DNA of 64,000 nucleotides. Source: an uncultured Verrucomicrobia subdivision 3 bacterium. GTDB taxonomy: Bacteria; Verrucomicrobiota; Verrucomicrobiia; Limisphaerales; DASXHY01. Each line of letters starts with the position of its first letter. Within the stretch, counting starts at the first letter, position 1. Shown here in pieces: positions 31,271 to 49,462 of this stretch. The stretch is taken from NCBI GenBank assembly GCA_937890005.1, contig CALBZA010000017.1, positions 7,571 through 71,570 on the forward strand. Reading direction: 5' to 3'. Both the position numbers and the translations under genes were made by a program. Below the pieces are notes generated by a model that was given only the letters and a program-made list of their open reading frames with translations, was not told the DNA's origin and did no database searches.

Positions 31271-33817
31271 ATGCCCAGTTCGAAGACGTTTCCGAGATGT
31301 CGTGCGCCGAAGTGGTTCTGGTTCGGATTGGGATTTCTTCTGCTCTGCTTTCCCGGTTTTGCGCAAACGCTGATTGAATCTCAGAAACTGTTTCTTGGCG
31401 GTGATTACAACGCCGTGATCCGTGCTGCCGAAGCGCGCAGCCACAGTCTTTCGACCGACTGGCATGTGCTTTATGTCAAATCGCTGCTGATGGTCGGGCG
31501 TTATGATGAGGCGCGAGCGCGCGCGAAAGTGGCGGTTGACTATTCGCCGTTGGACCTGCGGGTTCTCATGCTCGCGCGCGAGGCGGCTTTGTATGGAAAC
31601 AATCCCGTCGAGGCGAACCGCCGGTTGTTGGAAATGCGGCTGGTGATCGAACGCAGAGGCTTGAATGTGTCGGATGGTGAAAGCCTCGTCGCAGCGGGCG
31701 AGGCGTTGCTGCTGCTGGGGGTCGAGCCGCGGGTGATTCTGGAAAATTGTTTCCGACGCGCGGAACGGATGACGGCTCCGCCGCGCGAAGCGTTTCTGGC
31801 GATCGGGAAACTTGGGTTGGAAAAACGCGATTTCGCACTGGCGGCAGAAACGTTTCGCGCAGGTTTGAAAAAGTTTCCCGATGACGCCGACATGTACGGC
31901 GGACTGGCACAGGCGTTTCAAACCGGCGACCGGAAGGAAATGCTTTCGGCGATTGAATCGGCGCTGGCGAGAAACGCCAATCACATCCCCAGCCTGCTGC
32001 TGCTCACGGATCATCTCATCGATGGCGAGCAATATGACGAAGCGGAAAAACAGGCGCAGCTCGTGTTGAAGGTGAATCCCTCGCATCCCGAAGCCTTCGC
32101 TTACCGCGCCGTGATCGCACATCTCCGGAATGAACGCGACCGGGAACAGCAGTTGCGCGCGGAGGCCCTGAAGTTCTGGAAAACGAACCCGAATGTGGAC
32201 CATCTGATCGGCCGGAAGTTGTCGCAGAAATATCGTTTCGAGGAAGGCGCCGCCGCGCAGAAAAAGGCTTTGGAATTTCAGCCCGATTTCCTTCCCGCCC
32301 AACGGCAGCTCGCGGAAGATCTGCTTCGCCTCGGTTACACGGAAGAGGGCTGGAAGCTGGCGGAAGCGGTTCACAAGCACGACGAATACGACGTCACAGC
32401 GTTCAACCTCACCGTGCTGCGCGACAAGATGGGCGGATTCAAAAGCCTCACGAATGGAAACTTCATCGTCCGCATGTCTGAACGCGAGGCGGCGATTTAT
32501 GGCGATCGTGTCCTCGCGCTGCTGGAACGGGCACATTCGGTGTTGTGCGGCAAATACGGCGTCAGGCTGACGCGGCCGACGATCGTGGAGATTTTTCCCG
32601 AGCAGAAGGATTTTCAGGTTCGGACATTCGGCATGCCCGGAAATCCCGGTTACCTGGGTGTTTGCTTTGGATCGGTGATCACCGCCAACAGCCCTGCCTC
32701 GCAGGGAAGTTCTCCGGCGAACTGGGAAAGCGTTCTCTGGCATGAGTTCTGTCACGTCGTCACTCTGAACGCGACCCGGAACAAAATGCCGCGCTGGCTG
32801 AGCGAAGGCATTTCGGTTTACGAGGAACGTCAGGCGAATCCCGCGTGGGGCGAGAGAATGAATCTGGCGTATCGCGACATGATCCTTGGCGACGATTTCA
32901 CTCCAATCGGAAAATTGAGCGGCGCCTTCCTCGCTCCAAAAAGCAGCCAGCATCTGATGTTCGCCTATTACGAATCATCGCTCGCCGTGGAGTTCATGAT
33001 TGAGAAATACGGACTGGAGGCGATCCGGAACATTCTGCGCGATCTCGGAGCCGGCGAAGAAATCAACAAAACCATCGCCGCGCACACCGCGGAATTGTCG
33101 AAGGTGGAAAAGGAGTTTGAAGCTTATTGCCGGGAAAGAGCGAAGAATCTTGCGCCGGACATCGATCTGACCCGTCCGCCCGGGCGCGGCTCGGAATCCG
33201 AGCTGACCGTATGGCAGGCGACGAATCCGAGGAATTACTTCGTGCAGATGCGCAAGGCGCGGCTGGCGATGGAAGAAAAGCGGTGGAACGACGCCAAACC
33301 GATCCTTGAATCTGTTTCCAAAGCGTACGCGGGCGAAACCGGCGGCGACAATCCGCTCTGGCTGCTGGCCGTGGTGGAACGGAATCTCGGAAACACCAAC
33401 GCCGAACTGGCGTTGCTGGAGCGGCTGGCAAAACAGGATGCCGATTTTATCGAACTGTTTCAGAGATTGATCGAGCTGTCCGAACAGCGGCAGGACTGGA
33501 CGAACGTGATGCATTACACCGAAAAGCTTCTCGCGGTAAATCCATTGATCTCACTGCCGTATCGCGCCCTGGCGCGCGCGGCGACGGCGATGGAACGAAA
33601 CGATCAGGCCATCGGTGCGTATCGAGCGCTCCTGTTGTTGAATCCGCCTGATCCGGCGGATGCTCATCTGCAACTCGCGCGATTGCTTCACAAGCGCGGC
33701 GATTCGCGGACCGAGGCGAAAAGGCATGTGCTGAAAGCACTGGAAGAGGCGCCGCGCTTCCGGGCCGCGCAGCAGTTGCTGCTGGAACTGCGCGAAGGCG
33801 AAGCGGTGACGAATTGA
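31271..33817 (+). CDS. Secreted TPR-repeat protein with an embedded gluzincin (peptidase MA-like) domain
   Basis: Signal peptide; HExxH motif LWHEFCHVV followed by WLSEGISVYEE (third-ligand Glu context); TPR units at both ends. Confidence 0.7.
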   Translation: MPSSKTFPRCRAPKWFWFGLGFLLLCFPGFAQTLIESQKLFLGGDYNAVIRAAEARSHSLSTDWHVLYVKSLLMVGRYDEARARAKVAVDYSPLDLRVLMLAREAALYGNNPVEANRRLLEMRLVIERRGLNVSDGESLVAAGEALLLLGVEPRVILENCFRRAERMTAPPREAFLAIGKLGLEKRDFALAAETFRAGLKKFPDDADMYGGLAQAFQTGDRKEMLSAIESALARNANHIPSLLLLTDHLIDGEQYDEAEKQAQLVLKVNPSHPEAFAYRAVIAHLRNERDREQQLRAEALKFWKTNPNVDHLIGRKLSQKYRFEEGAAAQKKALEFQPDFLPAQRQLAEDLLRLGYTEEGWKLAEAVHKHDEYDVTAFNLTVLRDKMGGFKSLTNGNFIVRMSEREAAIYGDRVLALLERAHSVLCGKYGVRLTRPTIVEIFPEQKDFQVRTFGMPGNPGYLGVCFGSVITANSPASQGSSPANWESVLWHEFCHVVTLNATRNKMPRWLSEGISVYEERQANPAWGERMNLAYRDMILGDDFTPIGKLSGAFLAPKSSQHLMFAYYESSLAVEFMIEKYGLEAIRNILRDLGAGEEINKTIAAHTAELSKVEKEFEAYCRERAKNLAPDIDLTRPPGRGSESELTVWQATNPRNYFVQMRKARLAMEEKRWNDAKPILESVSKAYAGETGGDNPLWLLAVVERNLGNTNAELALLERLAKQDADFIELFQRLIELSEQRQDWTNVMHYTEKLLAVNPLISLPYRALARAATAMERNDQAIGAYRALLLLNPPDPADAHLQLARLLHKRGDSRTEAKRHVLKALEEAPRFRAAQQLLLELREGEAVTN

Positions 33818-33893
33818 AGCCAGGGAACGTATGACGAGCATCGATTCGAGTTGGACAATCAGGAACGGAACGCGAGTCCGAAGCTTGTGGCGT

Positions 33894-33911
33894 GCGGCGA
33901 CATGTCGCCGC
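33894..33911. repeat. Perfect 18-bp palindrome GCGGCGACATGTCGCCGC (REP-like, or operator/terminator candidate)
   Basis: gcggcgaca/tgtcgccgc is self-complementary, and the core GCGACATGTCGC is shared with 33951..33968. Confidence 0.8.
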
Positions 33912-33950
33912 TTTCCAACCGCGGGTGAGACATTTTGCGGTGATAAAAGA

Positions 33951-33968
33951 GCTGCGACATGTCGCAGC
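33951..33968. repeat. Perfect 18-bp palindrome GCTGCGACATGTCGCAGC
   Basis: Self-complementary. It lies 57 bp centre-to-centre from the first palindrome and ends 33 nt before ATG 34002. Confidence 0.8.
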
Positions 33969-34001
33969 ATTCCCAAAACGCCGGGCGATCGAGATTTTTA
34001 G

Positions 34002-34937
34002 ATGAAACGCGCCATTCTCATTTTTCTGCTCGTGTGTGTGCTGGGCACGATTGTGTATGCGCAGCGTCGTCGTGGCTTTGGTGGTGGCTGGGGCGGAGGG
34101 GATGATGGGGGCATTGTTTATACGGAAGGCGGAATCCCGGTCGATCTCGACCGCGTGCGCACGGCGCGTGAGGTTGCGACGCACAGCACGGATACGCCGA
34201 TGTGGACAAACAATCCTGCATTTGCGCGCGATACCTTCACATTTGTCCGAATCATTTATGGTCGTAAAACGCAGGGTTACCTGCCAGGGCGGGCGGGCAA
34301 CTGGATAACGGATTTTCCCGACAGCGATCTGAATCTCTCATTCCGCGTGCAGCAGATGACGTCGATCAAGGTGGATCCCTACGGACGCATCCTGCGCCTC
34401 ACCGATCCCGACCTGTTCAACTATCCGTGGATTTACATGGTTGAACCCGGCCGGCTTGAGTTCAAGGAAGAGGAAGTGCCCATCCTGCGGCGGTTCCTGC
34501 TCAACGGCGGTTTCATGCTCGTGGATGACTTTTGGGGTGAAGTGCAGTGGCGGAACTTTCAGATGGAAATGAAACGTGTGTTTCCCGAGCGCGATTTCGT
34601 GGATGTGCCGATGGATCACCCGATCTTCAACTGTGTTTTCCCGCTGAAAGGTCCCAAGAATGCGCTGCAAGTGCCAAATTTCCGGGCCGGCATCGATACC
34701 CAACGCGGCGGACCCACCTGGGAATATCACGATGGCGAGCAATGCACGGAAGTGCACATCCGCGCGCTTTACGACGACAAGGGCCGGATCATCGTGCTTG
34801 CCCTGCACAACACCGACAACGGCGATGGCTGGGAGCGCGAGGGGGAGGGGCAGACGGATTACTTTTTCCGCCGGTTTTCCGAGAACATTTCGTTCCCGCT
34901 CGGCATCAACGTCATTTTCTATTCAATGACGCACTAG
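34002..34937 (+). CDS. Secreted DUF4159-like protein
   Basis: Signal peptide MKRAILIFLLVCVLGTIVYAQ, and DFPDSDLNLSFRV...YPWIYMVEPGRLEFKEEEVPILRRFLLNGGFMLVDDFWG as in DUF4159. The family call was made from memory. Confidence 0.6.
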   Translation: MKRAILIFLLVCVLGTIVYAQRRRGFGGGWGGGDDGGIVYTEGGIPVDLDRVRTAREVATHSTDTPMWTNNPAFARDTFTFVRIIYGRKTQGYLPGRAGNWITDFPDSDLNLSFRVQQMTSIKVDPYGRILRLTDPDLFNYPWIYMVEPGRLEFKEEEVPILRRFLLNGGFMLVDDFWGEVQWRNFQMEMKRVFPERDFVDVPMDHPIFNCVFPLKGPKNALQVPNFRAGIDTQRGGPTWEYHDGEQCTEVHIRALYDDKGRIIVLALHNTDNGDGWEREGEGQTDYFFRRFSENISFPLGINVIFYSMTH

Positions 34938-35007
34938 CTGGAACCGGAAGAGCGGCGGAAGCGTCCGGTAAGTTGAGCCCGGAGCTGCATTAACGAAGAA
35001 AGGCATT

Positions 35008-36012
35008 GTGGAAACGACAATTCATGAAACAGACGCGCAGACGGTTGAGAAACTGATCGCCGGACGCGCGCATATTGAGACCGAACTTTCCAAGGTGATC
35101 GTCGGCCAGAAGGATGTGCTCGAGCAGATTCTGCTGGCGCTGTTTTCCGGCGGGCATTGCCTCATCACCGGCGCGCCCGGCCTGGCGAAAACGTTGCTCG
35201 TGAAATCCATCGCGCGAATCTTTCACCTGAACTTCCAGCGCATCCAGTTCACGCCCGACCTGATGCCCGCAGACATCACCGGCACTGAAATTCTTTCCGA
35301 AACCGAAGCCGGCCGGCGCCTGACCTTCGTCAAAGGCCCTATCTTCGCCAACATGATTCTGGCCGATGAAATCAACCGCACACCGCCAAAGACGCAGTCG
35401 GCGCTTTTGGAAGCGATGCAGGAACATCAGGTGACCGCGGTCGGAATCCGTCATGCGCTGCCGGAACCGTTCTTCGTTCTTGCGACGCAGAATCCGATCG
35501 AAATGGAAGGCACCTATCCGCTGCCCGAAGCGCAGCTCGACCGGTTCATGTTCAACGTCGTCATCAATTATTTGCCTGAGGACGACGAGGTGGAGGTGGT
35601 TCAGCAAACGACAGCGCGGAAGCAATTGAACATCGAACCGCTGTTCACGGGCGAAGATGTGCTTCGGTTTCATGAACTCGTGAAACAGGTGCCGATCGCG
35701 CAAAGCCTGGTTCGTTACGCGGTGCGGCTTGCCGCGGCCACGCGACCCGGCCAGAACGGAACGCCGGAGTTCGTCAATCAATGGGTGAGCTGGGGCGCTG
35801 GAACACGCGCATCGCAGTTTCTGGTGCTTGGCGCCAAGGCACGGGCGCTGTTGCAGGGGCGCACCCACGTCACCGGCGACGACATCCGGACGCTTGCGGC
35901 GCCGGTGTTGCGGCATCGTGTACTCGTGAATTATCGCGCCGAGGCGGATGGTGTTGGTGTTGAAACCATCATTTCCAAACTGTTGCAGCACGTCACTGAA
36001 CCGGTTGCGTGA
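35008..36012 (+). CDS. MoxR-family AAA+ ATPase
   Basis: Walker A GAPGLAKT, Walker B ILADEINR, and ATQNPIEMEGTYPLPEAQLDRF, a MoxR hallmark. Confidence 0.9.
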   Translation: METTIHETDAQTVEKLIAGRAHIETELSKVIVGQKDVLEQILLALFSGGHCLITGAPGLAKTLLVKSIARIFHLNFQRIQFTPDLMPADITGTEILSETEAGRRLTFVKGPIFANMILADEINRTPPKTQSALLEAMQEHQVTAVGIRHALPEPFFVLATQNPIEMEGTYPLPEAQLDRFMFNVVINYLPEDDEVEVVQQTTARKQLNIEPLFTGEDVLRFHELVKQVPIAQSLVRYAVRLAAATRPGQNGTPEFVNQWVSWGAGTRASQFLVLGAKARALLQGRTHVTGDDIRTLAAPVLRHRVLVNYRAEADGVGVETIISKLLQHVTEPVA

Positions 36013-36028
36013 AGATTCTTTCCTGTTA

Positions 36029-36988
36029 ATGCCTGTCGTTTCTCCAGCTTCCTCCGCCGATCGCGGCCGCGGTTACGCCGATCCGAAAACGTTGATGGCG
36101 ATCCGCAACCTGGAGCTCCGCGCACGCGTGGTTGTGGAGGGATTTTGGAACGGTCTGCATCGCAGTCCGTATCATGGCTTTTCCGTGGAGTTCACGGAAT
36201 ACCGGCAATACAGCCCCGGCGATGACACGCGGTATCTCGACTGGCGCCTGTTCGCACGATCGGATCGTTATTACCTGAAAAAGTTCGAGGACGAAACTAA
36301 CCTGCGATGCCATCTGCTCGTCGATCAAAGCCGGTCGATGGAATACGGCTCGATCGGTTATTCGAAGTCGGACTTCGCCCGCACACTGGCCGCGACGCTT
36401 GCGTGGTTTTTGCATGGACAGGGCGATGCGGTCGGCTTGTTCACGTTCGGAGAACAGGTGAACGATTATCTTCCCGCACGGAACCGTCAGGGCCATTTGC
36501 GGCAGCTGATGCTGGCGCTGGAAAAGCAGGTGCCCGGACGAGAAACGAACGTCGCCGGAGTGCTTCAGCGGGTGTCGGAGACCGTGCGGAAACGCGGTTT
36601 GATCGTTCTTGTTTCCGACCTGCTCGCGCCGGTCGAACCGCTGGAAAACAACCTGGCCCGGCTGACGGCGGCAGGGCACGAAACGATGGTGTTTCAGATA
36701 CTCGATCCGAACGAGCTGGCGTTTGAGTTTTCGCAGGCAACGCTGCTGGAGGATCTGGAAAGCGGGCGGGAAATCGCACTCGATCCGGACAGCATTCGTT
36801 CTGAATACCAGCGCAAGCTGAGCGCTCATCTCGAACTGATCGATTCGAACTGCCGTCGCCTCGGTATTCCGGTTCATCGTCTTGTGACAAATCAGCCGCT
36901 GGAAATCGCTTTGCTGGAATTGCTCAAGAGCCGGAATCGGCGCGGCAAATGGCAGCGGCGCTCGGGCTCAACAGGACGGTCGTCATGA
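36029..36988 (+). CDS. DUF58 protein (vWA-like, MIDAS DQSRS)
   Basis: GFSVEFTEYRQYSPGDDTRYLDWR is the DUF58 signature. The MIDAS-like motif is LLVDQSRSM. Confidence 0.85.
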   Translation: MPVVSPASSADRGRGYADPKTLMAIRNLELRARVVVEGFWNGLHRSPYHGFSVEFTEYRQYSPGDDTRYLDWRLFARSDRYYLKKFEDETNLRCHLLVDQSRSMEYGSIGYSKSDFARTLAATLAWFLHGQGDAVGLFTFGEQVNDYLPARNRQGHLRQLMLALEKQVPGRETNVAGVLQRVSETVRKRGLIVLVSDLLAPVEPLENNLARLTAAGHETMVFQILDPNELAFEFSQATLLEDLESGREIALDPDSIRSEYQRKLSAHLELIDSNCRRLGIPVHRLVTNQPLEIALLELLKSRNRRGKWQRRSGSTGRSS

Positions 36989-39120
36989 GTTTCCTCGCGC
37001 CCATCTTTCTGATCGCCGGCGCGGCCATCGCCGGACCGATTCTGTTTCACCTGATCCGCCGGGTCGCACGGGAACGGGTTCAGTTCAGCTCGACGCTGTT
37101 TCTTCATCCGACGCCGCCCAAGGTCACGCGCCGGAAACGTGTGGATGACGTGTTGCTGCTGGTTTTGCGCTGTCTGTGTGTGCTGTTGATGGCGCTGGCA
37201 TTTGCGCGGCCGCTGTTCTCGCGCAGTTCCATCGCGCCGCTGGTCACAGATGATCGACGGCAGAAATTGCTGTTGATCGACACGAGTGCGAGCATGCAAC
37301 GCGACGGGGTCTGGGAAAAAGCGCGTTCAATCGCAGAACGTCATCTTGCCGATGCCGGACCGGATGACCAGGTGGCGATTGCTTCTTTCGACCGGCGTTT
37401 TCAATCGGTGATCACGTTCGAGGAATGGAACGGCTGGTCGGCCGATCAGCGAAAAGCTCTCGCGCTGGCGAGGCTGGAGACGCTTTCACCCAACTGGAAC
37501 GCCACGCAACTCGGCGCGGCAATGATCAGCGCCGTCGAGCATTTCCAACATCAGGCTGTTTCCGGAAATGCGCCGGAACGGAAGGAGTTGATCCTGATCT
37601 CCGATCTTCAGGAAGGCGCGAAGCTCGATGGATTGCAGGGCTATGAATGGCCGCGTGATTTGACCGTGGTCGTCGATACCGTCGCTCCCGCGCGGCGCGG
37701 CAATGTGGGAATTCACGTTGTGTCGTCTGAAGGCAAGGCAGCGGGACCATCGTTCCGGGTCGTGAACGCACGGGATACAGCGCGGGAACGATTCAAGGTG
37801 CAGGTTCTCCACAGCAGCGCGTCGCCAGAGATGGCATCGGATCAAATTGTCGAAGCCTACGTGGCGCCGGGACAGATGAAGACGATGGCGCTTGAGCTGA
37901 ATGAATCCGCCCGAACCGCTGAACTTCGTCTTGAAGACCCGGAGCCGTTCGACAACCGGGCTTATGTCGTCGTTCCCCAAACCGAGCATGTGGCCATCGC
38001 GTGGCTTGGAAGTGAAGCGGCGAACGATCCGGCGCAGATGCGGTTTTACTTCGACAAAGCGTTTCCCGAAACCAAACGCCGACGGGTCGAAGTGGCGGTT
38101 GTTGGAAACAATCAGCCGGTTTCAGCCGCAGCGTTGCGGGAGGCATCGCTGACGGTTGTTTCGCGCGCGTTGAATGCCGCCGAAGCGGATGTTTTGAAAC
38201 AATGGATCGCATCCGGAAACGCTGTGTTGATGATGTTGCCGGAGGATGCGACGACCGACTCGCTGGTGGCGCTGACCGGTGTTGATGCGTTGCGTGTGAG
38301 TGAAGCTTCCGGCCGATTCGTGCTGCTCGGGAAGATCGATTTCAATCATCCGCTCTTCGCACCGTTTGCCGATCCGCGGTTCAGCGACTTTACAAAGATT
38401 CATTTCTGGAAACATCGGCGATTGGATTTGCCGGCGGAGACGGACGCGCGTGTGGTCGCGGGCTTCGATGACGATTCGCCGGCCTTGGTTCAGTTCACCA
38501 TCGGGAAAGGTTCTTTGCTGGTGCTCACATCAGGATGGCATCCGGCCGACAGTCAACTGGCTGTTTCGAGCAAGTTCCCACCGCTGATGCAGACACTATT
38601 GTCGTGGGCCATGGCGGCCACTCCGTCGCGATCGCAATTTGTCGTCGGCGACTCCATCCCGTCGCCGATTTCGACTGGTTCGGCGGTGGAATGGCAATCG
38701 CCGGATGGGAAACGGGAAACGCTCCCGGCGGGAACGGCTTTTGTGCGGACGGACGTCCCCGGATTTTACACCGCCCGTTTCGATGGGAAGGAACGCCAAT
38801 TTGCCGTGAACCTTTCCGCTGACGAAAGTCGCACGACTCCGGGCAGTGTGGATCAGCTGGCGAAACTCGGTGTGCCGTTGAAGGGCAATGAAACCAGGCT
38901 CACCGCTGCTGCGGCGGCGAGCCAGTCGGTGCTGTCGCAAAAGCATGAGCTGGAGGGTCGGCAGAAATTGTGGCGGTGGTTGATTGCGGGCGCGCTGTTG
39001 ACTTTGATTGCTGAAATGGTGTTGAGCGGCCGATTGATGCGGAAGAACGATCGTCGGACGAAAGATGAATCGCAGCCGGCTGCGGCACCTGTCGAGACGC
39101 GGAAGGAGGAGTTCGCTTGA
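36985..39120 (+). CDS. BatA-N-domain / vWA membrane protein
   Basis: MSFLAPIFLIAGAAIAGPILFHLIRR matches the aerotolerance-regulator N-terminal motif. MIDAS motif LLLIDTSASM, and a C-terminal TM helix. ATGA overlap with the DUF58 gene. Confidence 0.8.
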   Translation: MSFLAPIFLIAGAAIAGPILFHLIRRVARERVQFSSTLFLHPTPPKVTRRKRVDDVLLLVLRCLCVLLMALAFARPLFSRSSIAPLVTDDRRQKLLLIDTSASMQRDGVWEKARSIAERHLADAGPDDQVAIASFDRRFQSVITFEEWNGWSADQRKALALARLETLSPNWNATQLGAAMISAVEHFQHQAVSGNAPERKELILISDLQEGAKLDGLQGYEWPRDLTVVVDTVAPARRGNVGIHVVSSEGKAAGPSFRVVNARDTARERFKVQVLHSSASPEMASDQIVEAYVAPGQMKTMALELNESARTAELRLEDPEPFDNRAYVVVPQTEHVAIAWLGSEAANDPAQMRFYFDKAFPETKRRRVEVAVVGNNQPVSAAALREASLTVVSRALNAAEADVLKQWIASGNAVLMMLPEDATTDSLVALTGVDALRVSEASGRFVLLGKIDFNHPLFAPFADPRFSDFTKIHFWKHRRLDLPAETDARVVAGFDDDSPALVQFTIGKGSLLVLTSGWHPADSQLAVSSKFPPLMQTLLSWAMAATPSRSQFVVGDSIPSPISTGSAVEWQSPDGKRETLPAGTAFVRTDVPGFYTARFDGKERQFAVNLSADESRTTPGSVDQLAKLGVPLKGNETRLTAAAAASQSVLSQKHELEGRQKLWRWLIAGALLTLIAEMVLSGRLMRKNDRRTKDESQPAAAPVETRKEEFA

Positions 39121-40766
39121 TCGACGCGCGGTTACAGGTCCGGTTGGAAAGACTCGAAGCGCTGCGGAAGAAAGCGCGTCTGTGGAACCGCGCCGCAATT
39201 TGCTGGTGGATCGTTGCCGCCGCTCTGGCGGTGATTCAATTCAGCAAGGTGACGTCAGTGGAGTTGCGACCAATTTGCCTGATGACGCTTCTGGCGGCAG
39301 GCGTGGTTGCGGTCATTTCGATCTGGATTGTTGAGCGTCGTCGCGCGAACGATTTCCGGGCGCTCGTGCAGGGCCTTGAAGCGGAACATCCCGATTTGCA
39401 TCCGCTGCTTTCAACGGCGTACGAGCAGGAACGCGATCCGGATTCAAAGGAATTTCATTTCCTTCAGCAACGCGTGGTGACGCAGGCGCTGCAACATCCG
39501 TCGCTGCGCAGTTTGCAGGAGAGCCTTGAGAAAAAGCTGCTGACCGCCAAAACGAATCATGCGTTCGGCCTGGCGATCGCGGTGGTTTTGATTTCGATCT
39601 CGGGAATCGATCACGGCAAACCGCAACGCAAATCACCGAGCAAATCGTTGTTTGCGGAATCGATTCAGGTCGAGCCCGGCGACATCGAACTGGAGCGCGG
39701 ACGCAGTTTCGTCGTGACCGTCCGATTCGATCGCCAGCCGCCCAGTGAAGCCACGCTTGTTCTGGCAACGGGAGAGGGCATCAGGCGAATACCCCTGGAA
39801 CGGCATCTGGACGATCCGCTGTTTGGAACGAGCTTGCGTGAGGTTATGGAAAGCGGCTCGTATCACATTGAGTATGGATCGAAAAAGACCCGCGATTATC
39901 GGATCACCGTTTTCGAATACCCCGTGCTCGTCCGCGCCGACGCATCGTTGGAATTTCCCGCCTACACCGGACTCACGAACAAGGCGATTCCGGACACGCT
40001 GCGGATCACTGCGGTGGAGGGAACGCGTTTGAGTTACACGTTTCAGCTCAACAAACCCGTGGCTGAAGCGAGCCTGGTTTCCAAGGAACAAACCATCCGC
40101 CTGATGCCCGGAACGAATGCGGCTCTGGAATTGAGCGATTTTGCGTTAACCAGCAGCGGCAGGTTTGCGCTTCATCTGCGGGATCACGATGGACGGACGA
40201 ATCGACGCAGCAGTGAATTTGTTTTTCAGGTGCTGCCGAATCGTCCGCCTGATTTGAAACTGAATTTCCCCCGCGGTGATCAGCGCGTGTCGCGATTGCA
40301 GGAACTGCGATTGGAAGGCGAAGTGATGGACGACTTCGGCGTGGTGCGATACGGCCTTGGCTACGGAATCGCGGGAGACGAACCCAAATTCGTGGAACTT
40401 GGCGCCGGCGCCGCGCGCAACGAAAAACGGCCGCTCCAATACGAGATCGATCTGGAACAGCTCGGCGTCGATATCGACCAGGTGGTGTCGTATTTCGTCT
40501 GGGCCGATGACGTCGGACCTGCGGGAGAGATTCGGCGGAATTACGGCGACATGTTTTTCGCGGAGATTCGTCCGTTCGATGAAATTTTCAGAGCGGACCA
40601 ATCTGGCGGCGATGGCAGTGGGCAGGAACAGCAGGGTGGGGAAGGTGGCCAGGAGGGCGGTGGCGGTCAACAGACGCGACTGACCGAGCTGCAAAAACAA
40701 ATCGTGATCGCGACCTGGAAAATCCAGCGCGAGAAAGGAGCCGCTCCGGCGGTATCGAAGCCATGA
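39117..40766 (+). CDS. Hypothetical membrane protein (beta-rich ectodomain, Gly/Gln-rich C-terminus; possibly DUF4175-like)
   Basis: Two N-terminal TM helices. TTGA start/stop overlap upstream and ATGA overlap downstream. No catalytic motif seen. Confidence 0.65.
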   Translation: MIDARLQVRLERLEALRKKARLWNRAAICWWIVAAALAVIQFSKVTSVELRPICLMTLLAAGVVAVISIWIVERRRANDFRALVQGLEAEHPDLHPLLSTAYEQERDPDSKEFHFLQQRVVTQALQHPSLRSLQESLEKKLLTAKTNHAFGLAIAVVLISISGIDHGKPQRKSPSKSLFAESIQVEPGDIELERGRSFVVTVRFDRQPPSEATLVLATGEGIRRIPLERHLDDPLFGTSLREVMESGSYHIEYGSKKTRDYRITVFEYPVLVRADASLEFPAYTGLTNKAIPDTLRITAVEGTRLSYTFQLNKPVAEASLVSKEQTIRLMPGTNAALELSDFALTSSGRFALHLRDHDGRTNRRSSEFVFQVLPNRPPDLKLNFPRGDQRVSRLQELRLEGEVMDDFGVVRYGLGYGIAGDEPKFVELGAGAARNEKRPLQYEIDLEQLGVDIDQVVSYFVWADDVGPAGEIRRNYGDMFFAEIRPFDEIFRADQSGGDGSGQEQQGGEGGQEGGGGQQTRLTELQKQIVIATWKIQREKGAAPAVSKP

Positions 40767-43192
40767 AGAGCAAAGGAAAAAAATCGGTGTTGGGCGACGG
40801 CTTGTCCACAAAGGCTTCAAGGCAGCCATCGCGAACCCTGCGGCGGGCACTGATCGGTTCGGCGCTGTTCGTGGCGTTGGGAATGTTCGTTCCGCAATCC
40901 GGGTTCAGTCAGCAGCGTCAGAACCGGCCTCTCTCCGCCCCTTCAGTTTCTCCGGCTTCAGGAAACTATTCCTCCAACCTGGTCGTCATTCGCGAGGCAC
41001 AGCAGCAGGCTTTGACACAGGCGCGCGAGATGATGAACCAGATCGAGAGCGATCGCGACCGGGTGGCTCTTCAGGCCGCGATCAAGGAGATGGAGCGTTC
41101 GCAGGAAGCGCTTGAAGCCGCCGAAAAATCACCGGAGAAACTTGCCGCGGCGACCGCTGCGCAGCAGAACGCGTATCAGGCGTTGCTCAAGATGATGCCG
41201 CGCGAATATCGGATGCAACGAAGTCAGCGCAATCAGAATCAGGGCCGCGGGCAATCCGGCCAGCCCCAGCGGCAGCAGATGGAGCAGCTCGAGATGAGCC
41301 GCGAGGAGAATCGTTACGAAACGGAACGGCAGGCACGTGCCGAAGCGACGCCGCAGCAGCGGGAGCAGTTGGAGACGTCCAATAAATTGCGGGAGCTCGC
41401 GCAACGGCAGCAGGATTTGAACGAACGATTGCGGGAACTGCAGACAGCGCTTCAGGCGGCACGAACCGAACCGGAAAAGGAGGAGCTGCGCCGCGAATTG
41501 AAACGCCTTCAGGACGAGCAACGGCAGATGCTGGCCGACGTGGATCAGATGCGTCAGGAGATGGAACAGTCCTCAAACGCCACATCCGAGGCGCGCGAGC
41601 AGATGGAGCAGACCCGTGCCGACATGCAACGCGCGGCTGAGGAGATGCAGAATGAATCCGCATCGGGCGCCCTGGCCGCCGGCACGCGCGCGCAACAGAA
41701 CATGCAGAACCTGCGCGACGAATTGCGGCGTCAGGCTTCAAGCCAGTTCACAGACCAGATGCGCGACATGCGCAATGATGCCCGGGAACTGGCCCGGCGA
41801 CAGGAGGAGATCGCGCGTCAGCTCGATCAGCTGGAGAATGGCCGGGAACGGTCACTCGACAATTCGCGCGAGCGGCAGGAATTGGTCCGTCAGATGACCC
41901 AGCAACACAACGCATTGACGAATCTTCTCTCGAACATGCGCGCCGTAACCGAACAGGCCGAGAACACCGAACCGCTTCTTTCGAAACAGCTTTACGACAC
42001 GCTTCGCCGGGCGGATCAGGCGCGAACGGATGAAATGTTGCAAATGGGAGCGCAGCTGGCGGAACGCGGTTTCCTTCCGCAGGCGAGCGAAGTCGAACGT
42101 GGTATTCGACAGAACGTGAATGACCTTCGGCAAAGCATCGAGCGTGCGGCGGAAAGCGTGCTTGGAAACGAAGCCGAATCGCTGCGTTACGCGGAACGGG
42201 AACTGAATCAGCTCTCCGAACAGATTGAGAGGGAACTCGCCGGTGGCGGTGGAACCAATTCGCTGGCTGGGGCGGGCGGACGGTCTGGTTCGGAAACCAA
42301 TCGTTTGCGGGAAGCCGGGGGAGGAATGGGAATGGATCGGCAGGGTCAGTCCGGACAACAAGCCCGAACGGGAGAGCGAGAGGGAAATGAACCCGGCGGA
42401 CGAGGTTCCGAACGCAGCAATGGGCAACCCACTCAAGCAGGTTCAGATCAACCGGGCACGCAATCCGGTGCCAGTGAGGAAACTCGAGTCGCCCAGGCCC
42501 AGACGGGGCAGCGCGGCGAAGGCTCTCAACAGAACGAGCAGCCATCCGGTCAGGGAAATGGAACTGCCGGCCAGGGCGAAGGCCAGGAGCAACGTTCAGG
42601 AAATCAACAGGCGCAAAATGGCGACCGCGGTCAGCGCGGACAGTCCGGCCAGCAGGGTCAGTCCGGCCGGTCTGATCAGGGAAATCAAGGTGGCGAGCGT
42701 TCGAGCCCGACCGAGGGTCAGGGTCAGATTGCAGATGCAAACCCGCAGAGTGGTGGAGGTGGCGGCGGTAGAGGCGGTGGTGGTCGTGATGGCGATCGAT
42801 TGAGGCAGATTGCCGAACAGATTGGCGCCGGCAACGACGGCAGGCTGGATGGCGGACCGATCACGGGGGGCGGTTTTGTGAATTGGGCCGACCGGCTGCG
42901 CGATGTGGAACGCGTGCTGGAAGATCCGGAGCTTCGCAACGAACTGGCCTCGGTTCGTGAACGGGTTGCAGCGATGCGGGCCGAGTTTCGCGAATCCGGA
43001 CGGCGTCCGTCCGAGGAGGTGTTGAAGCACAACATCGTGAAACCGTTGAGTGAGGTGCGGGTCTGGTTGCGTCAGGAACTGGCGCGTCGCGAAACGCCGG
43101 AGGGACTTGTGCCGTTGGACCGCGATCCGGTACCGGAGACCTTCTCCGAACTGGTGCGCCAGTATTACGAAAATCTTGGAACGACCCGGTGA
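40763..43192 (+). CDS. Secreted coiled-coil / intrinsically disordered Gln-Glu-Arg-Gly-rich protein
   Basis: Signal/TM segment LIGSALFVALGMFV. Roughly 400 aa of heptad-like QQ/EE/RR sequence are followed by GQ(G/S)-rich low complexity. The structured C-terminus reads GGFVNWADRLRDVERVLEDPELR. Confidence 0.7.
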   Translation: MKSKGKKSVLGDGLSTKASRQPSRTLRRALIGSALFVALGMFVPQSGFSQQRQNRPLSAPSVSPASGNYSSNLVVIREAQQQALTQAREMMNQIESDRDRVALQAAIKEMERSQEALEAAEKSPEKLAAATAAQQNAYQALLKMMPREYRMQRSQRNQNQGRGQSGQPQRQQMEQLEMSREENRYETERQARAEATPQQREQLETSNKLRELAQRQQDLNERLRELQTALQAARTEPEKEELRRELKRLQDEQRQMLADVDQMRQEMEQSSNATSEAREQMEQTRADMQRAAEEMQNESASGALAAGTRAQQNMQNLRDELRRQASSQFTDQMRDMRNDARELARRQEEIARQLDQLENGRERSLDNSRERQELVRQMTQQHNALTNLLSNMRAVTEQAENTEPLLSKQLYDTLRRADQARTDEMLQMGAQLAERGFLPQASEVERGIRQNVNDLRQSIERAAESVLGNEAESLRYAERELNQLSEQIERELAGGGGTNSLAGAGGRSGSETNRLREAGGGMGMDRQGQSGQQARTGEREGNEPGGRGSERSNGQPTQAGSDQPGTQSGASEETRVAQAQTGQRGEGSQQNEQPSGQGNGTAGQGEGQEQRSGNQQAQNGDRGQRGQSGQQGQSGRSDQGNQGGERSSPTEGQGQIADANPQSGGGGGGRGGGGRDGDRLRQIAEQIGAGNDGRLDGGPITGGGFVNWADRLRDVERVLEDPELRNELASVRERVAAMRAEFRESGRRPSEEVLKHNIVKPLSEVRVWLRQELARRETPEGLVPLDRDPVPETFSELVRQYYENLGTTR

Positions 43193-45600
43193 TCACCCTT
43201 TCTGCCATTGTCATTGTTGGTCGCGACTGGTTGATTCCCGCGCTGATTCTCACCGGAGTGGCGATTGCGGCGTTGATCCGGTCCTGGCGTGAAACGGGAA
43301 CATCCCGGCGCACCGCTCCCATTTGTGCCGGCTTGAAGCTGCTCGGCGTTCTGCTTCTCGCACTTGCTTTGATGGAACCAATCTGGGCAGGTCAGCGGGC
43401 GAAACCGGGTGCGAACCTGTTCGGGATCATTGTGGATAATAGCCAGAGCATGACTGTGAAGGATGGCGGTGCGACTCGCGCGGAAAATGTTCGCGAATGG
43501 GTTGCGGGAAATGAACATCGCTGGCGCGCGCAGCTGGAGGAGGATTTTCAGGTGCGACGTTACACATTCGACTCGCGGCTGGAACATACGAAGGATTTCG
43601 CGCAGTTGAACTTCAACGGTTCCGTTTCCAGTCTGGCCAATGCGTTGCGGACGGCTGCGGAACAATGGCGCGGACAACCCGTTGCCGGCGTTCTGCTGTT
43701 CACGGACGGCAACGCCACTGACATTCGGGATGAACTTCCTGATCTCACCGGTTTCCCGCCAGTTTATCCTGTGATTGCCAACAGCCGGTCGCGACTGAAC
43801 GATCTGGCGCTCCGAAAAGTGACGATGAGCCAGACAGCGTTCGAGGATGCACCGGTGAACATTCAGGCGTCCGTTCGCGCTTCGGGATTCAGCGGATCGG
43901 ATGTGGTTGCCACGTTGACCGAAGTGGCGGTGCAGGATGTCGCTGATTCGAACCGGACGTTCAAAGCTTCCGTTTCAGCGCAGTCGAACACGGTTGCGTC
44001 TTTGACCTCGCGCGCACGCGGAGCGGAATCGGATTTGACGTTTCGCTTTAAACTCCAGCCGGATCAGCCCGGCATCCATGTTTATTCGCTCGATATTGCG
44101 AGCGGGAATGGACGGTCCGACGATGCCGGCGAGGCCACACTGGTGAACAACAGGCGCATGCTGGTCGTGGATCGCGGCCAGCAGCCATTCCGCGTGCTTT
44201 ACGTGAGTGGCAGGCCGAACTGGGAATACAAGTTTCTGAATCGCGCGATTCAGGAGGATCATCAGGTGCAGATGGTCTCGCTGATCCGCGTCGCGAAACG
44301 CGAACCGAAGTTTGAGTTCAAAGGACGTGCCGGCGAGTCGAGCAATCCATTGTTTCGCGGATTCAACGAAGCGGACGAGGAACGCGCCCGTTACGATCAG
44401 CCTGTTCTGGTCCGGTTGAACACGAAGGATGAACTCGAACTGCGCGGTGGTTTTCCAAAAACAGCCGGGGAACTCTTTCAGTATCACGCGCTGATTCTCG
44501 ACGATGTGGAAGCGGAATTCTTCACGCGCGATCAGTTGTCGCTGATCCAGCAGTTCGTCTCCGAACGCGGCGGCGGATTTCTCATGTTGGGCGGAGCGGA
44601 ATCGTTTCGCGAAGGGGATTACGCCGGAACCCCGATCGCGTCGCTGCTGCCGGTTTATGTCGATCGACCGGTGGAGGTTCATCTTCCTTCGCAATTGCGG
44701 CTGACGTTGAGCAGGGAAGGATGGCTTCAGCCCTGGACGCGGTTGCGTCCGACCGAATCCGAAGAGAACGAACGGCTGGAAACAATGCCGGCGTTTGAAG
44801 TCTTCAATCCCGTGCGCGACGTGAAACCGGGCGCGAGTGTGCTGGCCACGGTTTCCGATCCGGATGGCAGGAATTATCCCGCTCTCGTGGTGCAGCGTTT
44901 CGGTCTGGGACGCACGGCTGCATTGACCGTTGGTGATCTGTGGCGCTGGGGATTGCGGGACGAAACGATGCAGAAGGATTTGGGGCGGAGCTGGCGTCAG
45001 TTGGTCCGCTGGCTCGTGGCCGATGTTCCGGCGCGGATCACGGTGGCGGTGGAACCGTCTGAATCCGGCGATGCTTCAGCTGTGCGGCTTCGTGTGAAGG
45101 CTCGGGATGAAGATTTCAAGCCGATCGAATCCGCGAATGTGACGTTGAACCTGCGGCGAATTGTGGCCGCGGGGGAAAACAATGTTTCTGACAATCTCGT
45201 GCAGCTTCCGGCGGAACCGGTTGTGAATGAGCCGGGAACGTTTGATGCCACTTACATCGCGCGCGATCCCGGCGCCTACATGGTGGAGGCGTCCGTCGCG
45301 GATTCTGCCAACGTGAAAATCGGTTCCGCGGTCGCAGCGTGGGCATCCGAGCCGGATGCGGAGGAGTTCCAGAACCTTGAGGTCAATCGCGCCCTGCTGG
45401 AGAACATCGCACGCAAAACCGGTGGCGAAGTGATCGATTATCATGATCTCGAGAATTTTGCGAAGCGGCTGCCGAAGGAACGCGCGCCGGTGATGGAAGC
45501 GACGAGCACGCCATTGTGGCATCGACCTGAAGTTCTCGCGCTGGCCCTGGGATGCTTTCTTGTCGAGTGGGGATTGCGTCGGCGGAAAGGATTGCCATGA
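43189..45600 (+). CDS. Polytopic membrane protein with a vWA (MIDAS DNSQS) domain and a glutamine-amidotransferase-like fold domain
   Basis: N-terminal TM helices, the motif FGIIVDNSQSM, YHALILDDVEAEFFTRDQLSLIQQFVSERGGGFLMLGG (class-I GATase-like fold without an obvious catalytic Cys), and a C-terminal TM helix. GTGA overlap. Confidence 0.75.
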   Translation: MITLSAIVIVGRDWLIPALILTGVAIAALIRSWRETGTSRRTAPICAGLKLLGVLLLALALMEPIWAGQRAKPGANLFGIIVDNSQSMTVKDGGATRAENVREWVAGNEHRWRAQLEEDFQVRRYTFDSRLEHTKDFAQLNFNGSVSSLANALRTAAEQWRGQPVAGVLLFTDGNATDIRDELPDLTGFPPVYPVIANSRSRLNDLALRKVTMSQTAFEDAPVNIQASVRASGFSGSDVVATLTEVAVQDVADSNRTFKASVSAQSNTVASLTSRARGAESDLTFRFKLQPDQPGIHVYSLDIASGNGRSDDAGEATLVNNRRMLVVDRGQQPFRVLYVSGRPNWEYKFLNRAIQEDHQVQMVSLIRVAKREPKFEFKGRAGESSNPLFRGFNEADEERARYDQPVLVRLNTKDELELRGGFPKTAGELFQYHALILDDVEAEFFTRDQLSLIQQFVSERGGGFLMLGGAESFREGDYAGTPIASLLPVYVDRPVEVHLPSQLRLTLSREGWLQPWTRLRPTESEENERLETMPAFEVFNPVRDVKPGASVLATVSDPDGRNYPALVVQRFGLGRTAALTVGDLWRWGLRDETMQKDLGRSWRQLVRWLVADVPARITVAVEPSESGDASAVRLRVKARDEDFKPIESANVTLNLRRIVAAGENNVSDNLVQLPAEPVVNEPGTFDATYIARDPGAYMVEASVADSANVKIGSAVAAWASEPDAEEFQNLEVNRALLENIARKTGGEVIDYHDLENFAKRLPKERAPVMEATSTPLWHRPEVLALALGCFLVEWGLRRRKGLP

Positions 45601-46604
45601 GATTTCGTTTCATGAAGGCGATCATTTGGCGGCTTGCGATTCTTCTGCTGGCGACGGTTACCGCATTTCCCGTTACGGCACAGAATAGTTCGACAGTTCA
45701 AACGAATGAGGCGCGATCGCTTGTCCTGGTGATTGGCGCTGCGGGCGAACTGGAATATGGCGAGGCGTTTGCCAGATCGGCGGACCTTTGGACGGAAGCG
45801 GCGCGACAGGGCGGATTCCGAACCGTTGTGATCGGGCAGGGGACGAACTCAGTTGCCGACGACAAAGTGCAGTTGCTGACGACGATTACGAATGAAATCG
45901 CAGCGTCGGGTGGAGAACTCTGGGTCGTTTTGATCGGGCACGGAACGTTTGATGGCAAAACGGCAAAGTTCAATTTGCGCGGACCTGATATTTCCTCGGA
46001 TGAATTGGCGGCCGCGTTGAAGAACTGTCGGCGTCCTCTCGCGGTCATCAATTGCGCTTCCGCGAGCGGACCTTTTCTGAAGGCGCTGTCGGGTCCGGGC
46101 CGCGTGGTGATCACTGCGACGCGGAGCGGATACGAACTGAATCTGACGCGTTTCGGTGATTATCTGGCCAAGGCGATCGGCAGTCCGGAAGCCGATCTGG
46201 ACAAGGACGGTCAGACTTCGCTGCTGGAGGCCTATTTGATGGCGTCGCGGCAGGTCGAGCAGTTTTACACGGAGTCGGGCCGGCTCGCGACGGAGCATTC
46301 CTTGATGGATGACAATGGCGATGGACTGGGCACGCCGGCGGAATTTTTCGTGGGAGTGCGGGCGACGAAAAAGGCTGAGGGCGGTCGGAGCACGGATGGG
46401 GTCCGCGCGCACCAGATGAATGTGATTCGCGGAACGGAGGAGGCGCGGCTGTCACCGGAACGCCGCGCGCAACGCGATGCATTGGAGAGTGAATTGAACG
46501 CGTTGCGCGAACGCAAAACGTCCATGGCGGAGGACGATTACTATCGCGAGCTGGAGCGTGTTCTCGAAGCCATTGCCCGGATTTACCTTCAACCCGAAAC
46601 CTGA
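45597..46604 (+). CDS. Secreted clan-CD (legumain/C13- or caspase-like) fold protein
   Basis: Signal peptide MRFRFMKAIIWRLAILLLATVTAFPVTAQ. A His-Cys dyad sits in the canonical strand-end context: WVVLIGHG (His115, codon 45939-45941) and LAVINCASASG (Cys153, codon 46053-46055), 38 residues apart. It is followed by VVITATRSGYE. ATGA overlap. Confidence 0.6.
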   Translation: MRFRFMKAIIWRLAILLLATVTAFPVTAQNSSTVQTNEARSLVLVIGAAGELEYGEAFARSADLWTEAARQGGFRTVVIGQGTNSVADDKVQLLTTITNEIAASGGELWVVLIGHGTFDGKTAKFNLRGPDISSDELAAALKNCRRPLAVINCASASGPFLKALSGPGRVVITATRSGYELNLTRFGDYLAKAIGSPEADLDKDGQTSLLEAYLMASRQVEQFYTESGRLATEHSLMDDNGDGLGTPAEFFVGVRATKKAEGGRSTDGVRAHQMNVIRGTEEARLSPERRAQRDALESELNALRERKTSMAEDDYYRELERVLEAIARIYLQPET

Positions 46605-46623: not shown

Positions 46624-47058
46624 CTACGAGAGTTCGTCGATCAGTTCGATGCGTCGTTGGTGGCGTCCACCTTCGAACGGAGTGTCGAGCCAGACGCGGA
46701 CGATTTCGAGGGCCTGATCGAGGGACATCATTCGCTGGCCGAGCGAGAGCACGTTGGCGTTGTTGTGAAGGCGTCCGAAGCGGGCGGATTCGAGATCCCA
46801 GCAGAGTGAGCAGCGGATTCCTTTCACGCGATTGGCGGTCATCGCTTCGCCGTTTCCGGAACCGCCGAGGACGATGCCGCGTTCGGCTTCTCCCTTTGCG
46901 ACCGCTTCGGCCACGGGACGGATGAAGAGAGGGTAATCGACGGGAGAATCGGATTCCGGTCCGAAATCCTTAACGGTATGGCCCATGTTGGTGAGCATGG
47001 CCTTGATTTGTTCCTTATACTTGAACCCTGCGTGGTCAGATCCGATCGCAATCTTCAT
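46624..47058 (-). CDS. rpiB: Ribose-5-phosphate isomerase B
   Basis: MKIAIGSDHAGFKYKEQIK...GIVLGGSGNGEAMTANRVKGIRC...HNNANVLSLG are RpiB/LacAB signatures. Confidence 0.9.
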   Translation of the reverse strand: MKIAIGSDHAGFKYKEQIKAMLTNMGHTVKDFGPESDSPVDYPLFIRPVAEAVAKGEAERGIVLGGSGNGEAMTANRVKGIRCSLCWDLESARFGRLHNNANVLSLGQRMMSLDQALEIVRVWLDTPFEGGRHQRRIELIDELS

Positions 47059-47187: not shown

Positions 47188-47222
47188 GGCAATTCCCATT
47201 CCGCAATCCGAAATCACCAATC
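47188..47222. repeat. NNCAATC-type heptad tract (5 units) at the flhB stop codon
   Basis: ggcaatt cccattc cgcaatc cgaaatc accaatc. The same unit type occurs at 50231..50293 on the opposite strand and at 18033..18047. Confidence 0.6.
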
Positions 47223-48306: not shown

Positions 48307-48321
48307 GGAAGGGCGTGGGCG

Positions 48322-49083: not shown

Positions 49084-49095
49084 TCTTCAATCTAA

Positions 49096-49435: not shown

Positions 49436-49462
49436 AAATAGCGATGGGTTGGACGCGCGAGG

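Follow-up and report, generated by a model that had tools for sequence, protein, structure and literature searches.

The subject of this report is a run of nine genes, P0 to P8, on a 64,000-nucleotide stretch of DNA (contig CALBZA010000017.1, positions 7,571 to 71,570) from an uncultured Verrucomicrobia subdivision 3 bacterium. The whole stretch is referred to below as the window, and positions are counted from its first letter. The nine genes lie on the forward strand in the order of their numbers (Table 1), with genes for a MoxR ATPase, a DUF58 protein and a membrane protein with a domain of the von Willebrand factor A (vWA) type at the heart of the run. A preliminary description of this DNA had proposed a MoxR (MRP-type)/DUF58/BatA-vWA operon with extra envelope genes, and this is supported by the domain matches obtained in Pfam and NCBIfam searches. 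The individual domain calls made there (DUF4159, AAA_3 in MoxR, DUF58, BatA_N with vWA, and GATase1_like) were essentially right by the same searches.

Operons of the MoxR/Bat type occur widely, and genetic work since 1999 has connected them with aerotolerance, stress resistance, virulence and envelope integrity. The P0 to P8 variant is unusually complete, as candidate clients or partners are encoded inside the same conserved operon: a putative gluzincin, a protein predicted to have a legumain-like fold and to bind calcium, and a membrane-anchored stalk of Ig-like and helical parts that is predicted to be periplasmic. These candidate partners thus provide concrete hypotheses on what the MoxR-DUF58-vWA core acts on.

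Table 1. Genes of the P0 to P8 block and their overlapping junctions, with positions in the window
Feature	Positions	Strand	Basis
P0, predicted secreted TPR - Peptidase_MA_2 - TPR protein (gluzincin), 848 aa	31271-33817	+	Pfam, HExxH, synteny
P1, predicted secreted DUF4159 protein, 311 aa	34002-34937	+	PF13709, E 4e-43
P2, predicted cytoplasmic MoxR AAA+ ATPase (AAA_3, MRP type), 334 aa	35008-36012	+	PF07726, E 3e-63; AAA_lid_2, E 6e-17
P3, predicted cytoplasmic DUF58 vWA adaptor, directly downstream of moxR	36029-36988	+	PF01882, E 7e-51; VWA_2, E 5e-10
P4, predicted inner-membrane protein: BatA_N double transmembrane segment, periplasmic vWA, GATase1/GIFT-like region, C-terminal transmembrane segment	36985-39120	+	Pfam, TIGR02226
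P5, putative N-terminal half of a split DUF4175-like protein	39117-40766	+	PF13779, 29.3 bits (cutoff 27.3); AlphaFold2 model
P6, putative C-terminal half of a split DUF4175-like protein	40763-43192	+	composition, orthologue coverage, profile match to fusion
P7, predicted inner-membrane protein: double transmembrane segment, probable vWA (DNSQS), GATase1_like, Ig-like domain, C-terminal transmembrane segment	43189-45600	+	PF07090, E 4e-9
P8, predicted secreted caspase/legumain-fold (C13-like) protein	45597-46604	+	AlphaFold2 and Foldseek; PF01650 matches of relatives
Five consecutive 4-nt NTGA start/stop overlaps	36985-45600	+	read directly; kept at orthologous junctions

Extent and conservation of the gene block

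Eight co-directional genes had been described between 34002 and 46604, and the positions of the open reading frames (ORFs) confirm them. Five consecutive junctions, from P3/P4 to P7/P8, were said to be 4-nucleotide (nt) start/stop overlaps. Read directly, they are ATGA (36985), TTGA (39117), ATGA (40763), GTGA (43189) and ATGA (45597), exactly where they had been placed. When genes were crudely selected across the whole window, 10 of the 39 neighbouring pairs that are co-directional overlapped in this way, five of the ten belonging to the P3 to P8 run; outside this run the rate is about 16%. Thus, although the feature is common in this genome, five overlaps in succession are unlikely to arise by chance. 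The overlaps are also kept in other genomes, in which the encoded proteins are 35-65% identical: the P7/P8 junction retains the 4-nt overlap in 67 of 78 cases, P4/P5 in 40 of 55, P3/P4 in 33 of 46 and P6/P7 in 30 of 65. A scan for promoters and terminators was uninformative: the one site resembling a promoter was on the wrong strand, and sites resembling terminators were about as frequent as in shuffled sequence. No Rfam family was found in the window.

The conserved unit is nine genes long (31271-46604) and begins one gene earlier than first described. The eight genes listed at the outset are real, but a gene for a TPR/Peptidase_MA protein, P0, lies immediately ahead of them and had been overlooked. 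In the window the block is flanked by dnaG and DnaJ-domain genes upstream, and by rpiB and flhB/fliR/fliP on the opposite strand downstream. In the other loci fetched, these flanking genes are absent from beside the cluster, save in one locus (L002) that carries a copy of the window's own sequence. P0 and P8 are therefore taken to be the ends of the conserved block.

By its own account, the preliminary description would be refuted if the accessory genes were not syntenic with moxR in related genomes; this synteny was found. A diverse alignment of P8 sequences, compared with a collection holding one genome per species, gave at least 597 confirmed stretches. The best 80 of these belong to Verrucomicrobiota (Limisphaerales/Pedosphaera, Opitutales) and Planctomycetota (Phycisphaerae, Sedimentisphaerales, Pirellulales, Isosphaeraceae). 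Among 55 loci having the full 10 kb upstream of P8, all contain P7, 53 contain P5, 53 contain P6 and 52 contain P4; P4 to P8 are colinear in 52 of the 55, that is, in every complete locus of this verrucomicrobial and planctomycetal sample. P7 and P8 form the tightest pair. MoxR and DUF58 genes are seen in these P8-centred loci wherever the flank extends to them.

The upstream part of the block was followed by a DUF58-centred scan of metagenomes and then by tblastn, which left 26 loci with enough sequence. P0, P1 and P2 stand upstream of DUF58, in that order, in 24-25 of the 26: P0 is upstream of P1 in 25, and P1 lies between P0 and MoxR in 24. An independent ENA contig has the same gene order according to its precomputed Pfam labels. 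On a megaplasmid of Gemmatirosa kalamazoonensis (Gemmatimonadota) the same set is found on one strand in a permuted order, P7-P8-P0-P1-P2-P3-P4-P5/6. This retention of the set after rearrangement is strong evidence that the linkage is functional and not merely inherited. The cluster is thus conserved across Verrucomicrobia, Planctomycetes and Gemmatimonadetes, and its sequence divergence is even across two phyla (45-80% identity). In the literature searched there are papers on Bat, cmd and ternary MoxR systems, and none on the cluster in the Planctomycetes-Verrucomicrobia-Chlamydiae (PVC) group and Gemmatimonadota, on the P8 family, or on a link between DUF4175 and MoxR.

Products of the nine genes

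Topology was predicted from hydrophobic segments and the positive-inside distribution of basic residues. On this basis P2 and P3 appear to be cytoplasmic, P4 and P7 would each have an N-out double transmembrane (TM) segment, a large periplasmic body and a C-terminal TM segment, and P1, P6 and P8 carry signal-like N-termini. P2 has intact Walker A (GAPGLAKT) and Walker B (ILADE) motifs, read in the sequence, and its orthologues are 66-86% identical to it. The P3 ORF opens at 35948; its start is uncertain, the one given in Table 1 being the likelier. P3 has no TM segment, and its metal ion-dependent adhesion site (MIDAS) reads DQSRS, with the DxSxS pattern invariant in 125 of 125 orthologues.

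P4 matches PF07584 (E 1e-15), TIGR02226 (E 4e-18) and VWA_2 (E 8e-10). Its TM segments fall at residues 3-21, 56-74 and 662-680, and its MIDAS, DTSAS, conforms to DxSxS in all 108 orthologues. The third MIDAS originally reported, DNSQS in P7, is likewise present in the window, as are the other two. Pfam gives no VWA match for the P7 protein of the window, and a direct BLASTP comparison of P4 with P7 gives no significant similarity. Nevertheless, the two proteins probably share an architecture. The Gemmatirosa orthologue of P7 matches VWA (E 6e-4) as well as Big_1/Filamin-like domains, that of P4 matches GATase1_like (E 7e-4), and hhalign aligns P7 with the vWA region of P4 at a probability of 51% (E 1.6e-4). 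For the vWA domains of P4 and P3, profile comparison gives a probability of 95%.

P5 and P6 had been described as a separate beta-rich membrane gene and coiled-coil gene. Their products, however, appear to be the two halves of one DUF4175-type protein. In Gemmatirosa (L083, 24954-28760) a single 1268-residue ORF matches P5 and P6 colinearly. P5 aligns with residues 75-557 of this fusion (E 4e-33), and a profile of P6 residues 75-330 aligns with its residues 577-730, while profiles of the middle and C-terminal parts of P6 do not match it. The fusion itself matches positions 621-766 of the DUF4175 profile. The likeness to DUF4175 (PF13779; low-complexity membrane proteins of the TIGR02302 type) lies in the match of P5 to the N-terminal, beta-rich region of the profile. 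This match is marginal, covers only profile positions 184-320 and is shared by 14 of 26 P5 orthologues. The difference, besides the marginal scores, is its division between two translationally coupled genes, seen in the window, where they overlap by 4 nt, and also at the PVC loci examined. To our knowledge no function has been established for the DUF4175 family; the present association suggests that its members belong functionally with MoxR systems.

In the AlphaFold2 model of P5 (predicted local distance difference test score, pLDDT, 81), a TM hairpin is followed by cytoplasmic helices, a third TM segment and then three Ig-like beta-sandwiches, from which a linker rich in Gly leads to a terminal helix. 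P5 had been called a two-TM protein, and the three hydrophobic segments found contradict this. Foldseek searches with the model returned only generic tandem Ig/macroglobulin-like folds. Between the second and third TM segments lies a predicted cytoplasmic segment of about 75 residues, in which E88, P92, L98, A101 and Q104 are invariant or nearly so. P6 has no Pfam or NCBIfam match. It is made up of a signal or anchor sequence, a conserved helical region rich in Q, E and R, a variable linker rich in G, Q and S, and a conserved C-terminus. As judged from the coverage of high-scoring segment pairs at 87 loci, conservation extends over about residues 90-500 and 720-809, the linker between them being variable. 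From its composition (Q 12.6, R 12.2, E 11.2 and G 10.3%) P6 may form a coiled coil.

Upstream of moxR, P0 is predicted to be a peptidase of the Peptidase_MA gluzincin type. It matches Pfam TPR families and PF13485 (38.1 bits, cutoff 32.4), has the HExxH motif as HEFCH at residues 491-495, and has a downstream Glu in WLSEG, a motif conserved with Gemmatirosa. HExxH is invariant in 32 of 32 orthologues, and the N-terminus resembles a signal peptide. The Gemmatirosa orthologue, which adjoins the DUF4159 gene there, matches P0 at E 2e-63. P1 has a hydrophobic N-terminus (residues 3-21) and belongs to DUF4159, a family that has been placed in the class-I glutamine-amidotransferase-like clan (PMC4702930). 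Ahead of the P1 domain, its mature N-terminus opens with an Arg/Gly-rich low-complexity stretch, RRRGFGGGWGGGDDGG (residues 21-37).

The last gene, P8, has no match to any Pfam or NCBIfam family. It defines a large family for which neither database holds a model: more than 6,698 homologues, all unnamed, were found in a set of 5.8 billion proteins, and the family comprises 3,035 clusters when grouped at 50% identity, of which 913 match at E<1e-30. P8 had been described as 'clan-CD peptidase-like'. As regards the fold, this appears to be right. The AlphaFold2 core is well modelled (pLDDT about 90 for residues 40-160, with residues 200-280 poorly modelled), and Foldseek comparison with the PDB retrieves Dronc, MALT1, caspases 7, 9 and 11, and GSU0716, with E values of 1e-5 to 1e-3 and TM-scores of only 0.3-0.5. 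A profile of P8 homologues found nothing significant among PDB sequences. P8 itself falls below the gathering threshold of PF01650 (Peptidase_C13), and of 31 close homologues one reaches E 0.024. More distant relatives from Gemmatimonadaceae do pass it (26-33 bits, cutoff 22.8), and one of these is named a C13 family peptidase by NCBI. The link between P8 and C13 thus came to light only through fold comparison together with these relatives.

The putative active site is unusual. His115-Gly116 is invariant in 97 of 97 homologues and in the alignments A1, A2 and A6, and in both profile and single-sequence searches the 'GHG' motif falls opposite the His that is catalytic in metacaspases and legumain. 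The legumain segment IEACESG pairs with NTASASG, so that legumain's catalytic Cys189 corresponds to Ser155 of P8, which is Ser in 92 of the 97. Taken alone, the legumain alignment is sub-significant (E about 0.2), but it agrees with the significant Pfam match (the protein aligned with legumain matches PF01650 at E 5e-8) and with the spacing from His to nucleophile. Cys153 was considered as the catalytic Cys, being invariant among close homologues. It was rejected on broader sampling (C 43, T 40, S 7 and A 5 of 97) and on the legumain alignment, in which it pairs with Glu. Also invariant are Ser157, which shares the 'SASG' motif with Ser155, a 12-residue EF-hand loop (D200-x-D-x-D-G-x-x-S-x-x-E211) and a DDNGDG loop; C-terminal helices are present.

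P8 would thus have a C13-like fold and bind Ca2+, and it is predicted to be either a His/Ser hydrolase or a pseudo-peptidase. The peptidase label does not hold in the strict sense, for P8 lacks the canonical catalytic Cys and on this alignment would not be a canonical cysteine peptidase. It resembles peptidase C13 (legumain/GPI8) in its caspase-type fold, in the aligned catalytic His and in the PF01650 matches of its relatives. It differs in having Ser155 at the position of Cys189, in its additional EF-hand loop, in a helical extension at the C-terminus, and in always standing downstream of P7 in a MoxR operon.

Relation to known MoxR systems and possible role

The cluster is best read as an extended relative of the MoxR/Bat 'aerotolerance' operons, a variant of the Bat/Cmd/Mxa-type MoxR-DUF58-vWA systems. 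Precedents exist in the Bat, cmd and Borrelia/Leptospira loci, operons of the MoxR-DUF58-BatA/vWA-TPR kind with which envelope or stress phenotypes have been associated (PMC5700661, PMC3557215, PMC11834572). With the BatI operon of Bacteroides fragilis and the homologous operons of Riemerella, Leptospira and Borrelia (bb0170-bb0176), the cluster shares an MRP-type MoxR, DUF58 and a BatA_N double-TM vWA protein with MIDAS, in that order. It also shares with them a TPR protein, the co-directional arrangement and the largely envelope location of the products (PMC5700661, PMC11834572, PMC3557215), and P7 is a candidate counterpart of their second, BatB-like membrane vWA protein. Unlike these operons, it has neither BatD (PF13584) nor an SH3/TPR BatE; none of the nine proteins matches the Pfam family of BatD ('oxygen tolerance'). 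Instead, its TPR protein P0 lies upstream, has an inserted Peptidase_MA domain and lacks SH3. The vWA proteins P4 and P7 are some 700-800 residues long and contain GATase1-like domains, and there are extra genes for DUF4159, the split DUF4175-like protein and the C13-like P8. The phylogenetic range here, PVC and Gemmatimonadota, is different as well.

A second relative is cmdA-cmdD (RL3499-RL3502) of Rhizobium leguminosarum, termed a 'broadly conserved operon', the loss of which leads to morphology and envelope defects (Vanderlinde et al. 2011, as cited in PMC5700661). This operon has four genes and is not known to include a TPR-peptidase, DUF4175 or C13-like gene. Further operons combine MoxR and vWA with a YebA-like transglutaminase peptidase and have been predicted to form an ATP-dependent degradation system (Zhang & Aravind 2012, PMC3495828). 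They resemble the cluster in having MoxR, a DUF58-type vWA protein and a membrane-proximal protein with a peptidase fold. Their peptidase, however, is transglutaminase-like and sits on a cytoplasmic loop (PMC3495828), whereas the gluzincin and C13-like folds here are predicted to be secreted, and the P0 to P8 cluster has six further conserved genes. Presumably the Rhizobium membrane proteins CmdC and CmdD resemble P4 and P7 (BatA_N; DUF4159/DUF1355-type domains).

With moderate confidence, we propose that the operon-like unit P0 to P8 is an extended Bat/Cmd-type MoxR system which would use ATP to remodel or assemble an inner-membrane-anchored, mostly periplasmic complex. In its favour are the gene content, the domain and fold assignments with their predicted topology, the invariant motifs of P0, P3, P4 and P8, and the fact that the genes have kept together in order and with their overlaps. 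The terms 'tight stoichiometric co-expression' and 'envelope-spanning assembly machine', used for the locus from the start, are reasonable inferences. The physical complex, the direction of its action and its physiological role are given here as a model.

In this model the P2 ring and the P3 adaptor, both cytoplasmic, would spend ATP to assemble or remodel a membrane-anchored periplasmic complex. Its core would be the two BatA-like double-TM vWA/GATase1-like proteins P4 and P7, together with the split DUF4175 stalk. Within the stalk, P5 would contribute the three Ig-like domains and the sole sizeable conserved cytoplasmic segment, and P6 a long helical, low-complexity part. The secreted partners P0 (TPR-gluzincin), P1 (DUF4159) and P8 (Ca-binding legumain-fold His/Ser protein) may be recruited to this complex, with the periplasmic MIDAS domains holding acidic ligands of partner proteins. 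Coupling across the membrane would most likely involve P5, by way of its cytoplasmic segment, and P4 and P7, by way of their basic loops and tails. As the segment between TM2 and TM3 of P5 is the only substantial conserved cytoplasmic element outside P2 and P3, it is the best candidate docking site. Physiologically, the system may serve to maintain the envelope or to withstand stress, like those relatives that have been studied by genetics.

Several observations weigh against this model. The intergenic gaps of 184 nt between P0 and P1, 70 nt between P1 and P2 and about 16 nt between P2 and P3 leave room for internal promoters. The third of the reported MIDAS motifs does not stand up as well as the other two: among 90 P7 orthologues it is DxSxS in 36 and DxSxG in 54, and so is degenerate in most. 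The catalytic activity of P8 is uncertain. Some genomes have split sets, with P7-P8 alone (L017, L073), P5 to P8 without P4 (L025), or P0 to P4 but, within 10 kb, no P5 to P8 (L138, L139). Thus, the parts are not all obligatorily adjacent, and these genomes suggest modules consisting of P0 to P4, P5/P6 and P7/P8. A further locus, L030, shows only P5 to P8 and was not counted as split, since it has about 3 kb of sequence upstream of P5. Lastly, a cytoplasmic AAA+ protein would have to act on periplasmic domains, a difficulty shared by every Bat-type system.

A different idea is that the locus encodes ATP-dependent, membrane-proximal proteolysis or processing: after recruitment by vWA proteins, substrates would be unfolded or extracted by MoxR and then cleaved by P0 and P8. 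Two proteins with peptidase folds are strictly co-conserved with MoxR and DUF58, P8 is half of the tightest pair of genes with its overlap to P7 so widely kept, and an operon of MoxR, vWA and peptidase genes has been predicted before (PMC3495828). However, P0 and P8 are predicted to be periplasmic and MoxR cytoplasmic, which makes the hand-over of an unfolded chain topologically awkward. With no canonical catalytic Cys in P8 and no evident substrate, we regard this proposal as unlikely.

Metal loading offers another role for the same proteins. The mxaRSACKL genes are needed for the insertion of Ca2+ into periplasmic methanol dehydrogenase, and by analogy MoxR, DUF58 and the membrane vWA proteins could insert Ca2+ into the P8 EF-hand or Zn2+ into the P0 gluzincin during maturation. 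The invariant canonical EF-hand loop of P8 and its second DDNGDG loop, the invariant HExxH of P0 and the invariant MIDAS of P3 and P4 are all consistent with this, and MoxR-vWA pairs have been said to relieve inhibition or to promote the insertion of cofactors (PMC8926400). EF-hand and zinc sites, though, normally load spontaneously in the periplasm, and such a function would leave the P5/P6 stalk, DUF4159 and the GATase1-like domains without a role. Metal loading is accordingly judged unlikely.

A more ambitious version of the preferred model is distinctly speculative, and we give it little weight. Here the cluster would encode a trans-envelope machine not described before, present in Planctomycetota, Verrucomicrobiota and Gemmatimonadota, whose cytoplasmic MoxR motor switches the periplasmic MIDAS domains 'inside-out', as in integrins, via the cytoplasmic part of P5. 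Among clan-CD (legumain-fold) enzymes, P8 would be the first with a His/Ser dyad, controlled by Ca2+; it and the TPR-gluzincin would jointly carry out the processing or transpeptidation of envelope proteins.

It might also be argued that a Bat-like core, P2 to P4, merely lies beside unrelated envelope genes and that there is no single functional unit. The split loci and the gaps before P1, P2 and P3 are what would be expected in that case. The colinearity seen in both the P8-centred and the DUF58-centred samples, the conserved start/stop overlaps and the retention of the whole set after rearrangement in Gemmatirosa largely refute it, and it is very improbable.

Least probable of all, to the point that it can be nearly set aside, is a ternary-type MoxR-vWA conflict or defence system as described by Kaur, Aravind and colleagues, in which the caspase-fold protein would be the effector: caspase-like effectors and roles in sensing threats have been described for MoxR-vWA systems (PMC7159879; Esr pathway, bioRxiv 10.64898/2026.09.08.750141) and P2 also scores on bpMoxR (E 3e-11), but its AAA_3 match is far better, the nine proteins have no PADLOC family matches beyond weak generic AAA ones, no beta-propeller, VMAP, toxin or kinase/FHA module is present, the putative effector P8 is predicted to be secreted, and a colinear, evenly diverged set across two phyla is the opposite of patchy, hypervariable defence islands. 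The likeness to the MoxR-vWA-beta-propeller/VMAP ternary systems is confined to the MoxR-vWA pair and, in some of their versions, caspase-like domains (Kaur et al. 2020, PMC7159879); the cluster differs in having no sensor propeller, VMAP or effector toxin and in its housekeeping-like, colinear conservation.

The extended Bat/Cmd-type reading is thus retained. Nothing in the cluster overturns expectations, and its function remains inferred. Beyond the partners it suggests for the MoxR core, the widespread cluster contains the unannotated P8 family, with its at least 597 genome stretches and its unusual active-site configuration.

Neighbouring genes and related clusters

Upstream of P0, the DnaG primase gene (27702-29519, +) is followed by a gene for a 372-residue protein (30028-31146, +), the sole Pfam match of which is a J domain at the extreme C-terminus (residues 310-366). 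Downstream, rpiB (46624-47058, -) sits between P8 and the flagellar export genes flhB (Bac_export_2), fliR (Bac_export_1) and fliP, which occupy 47221-50357 on the reverse strand and converge on the P0 to P8 operon. The presence of these flagellar type III export genes indicates that the source organism is probably a flagellated verrucomicrobium. Five more 4-nt overlaps between long neighbouring ORFs are found elsewhere in the window, at 562, 9789, 16418 and 19585 on the forward strand and at 58978 on the reverse strand, and point to other translationally coupled operons.

In two of the fetched loci, from close relatives, a DUF4159 gene lies just downstream of the cluster (L001, 11471-14080, -; L003, about 12668-13366). 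It was considered as a relocated P1 and rejected as a more distant paralogue, its product being about 41% identical to P1, as against 46-61%. The paralogue adjoins a gene for a di-haem CCP_MauG peroxidase and a two-component system, which could hint at a redox link or be a coincidence.

A simpler paralogous cluster is found on the 81-kb plasmid pPL62-3 of Planctomyces sp. SH-PL62 (L084, 1-18216). This cluster, which has no P5, P6 or P8, comprises genes for a MoxR fragment, for DUF58, which is annotated as two pieces, for a protein with a BatA domain and for a 'VWA domain-containing protein' resembling P7; hypothetical, NPCBM/NEW2 and WD40 genes come next. Finally, eight records of metagenome-assembled genomes (L020, L033-L035, L043, L045, L046 and L049) carry a cluster of verrucomicrobial or planctomycetal type despite being titled Bifidobacterium, Klebsiella or Akkermansia muciniphila, and these labels are probably wrong.

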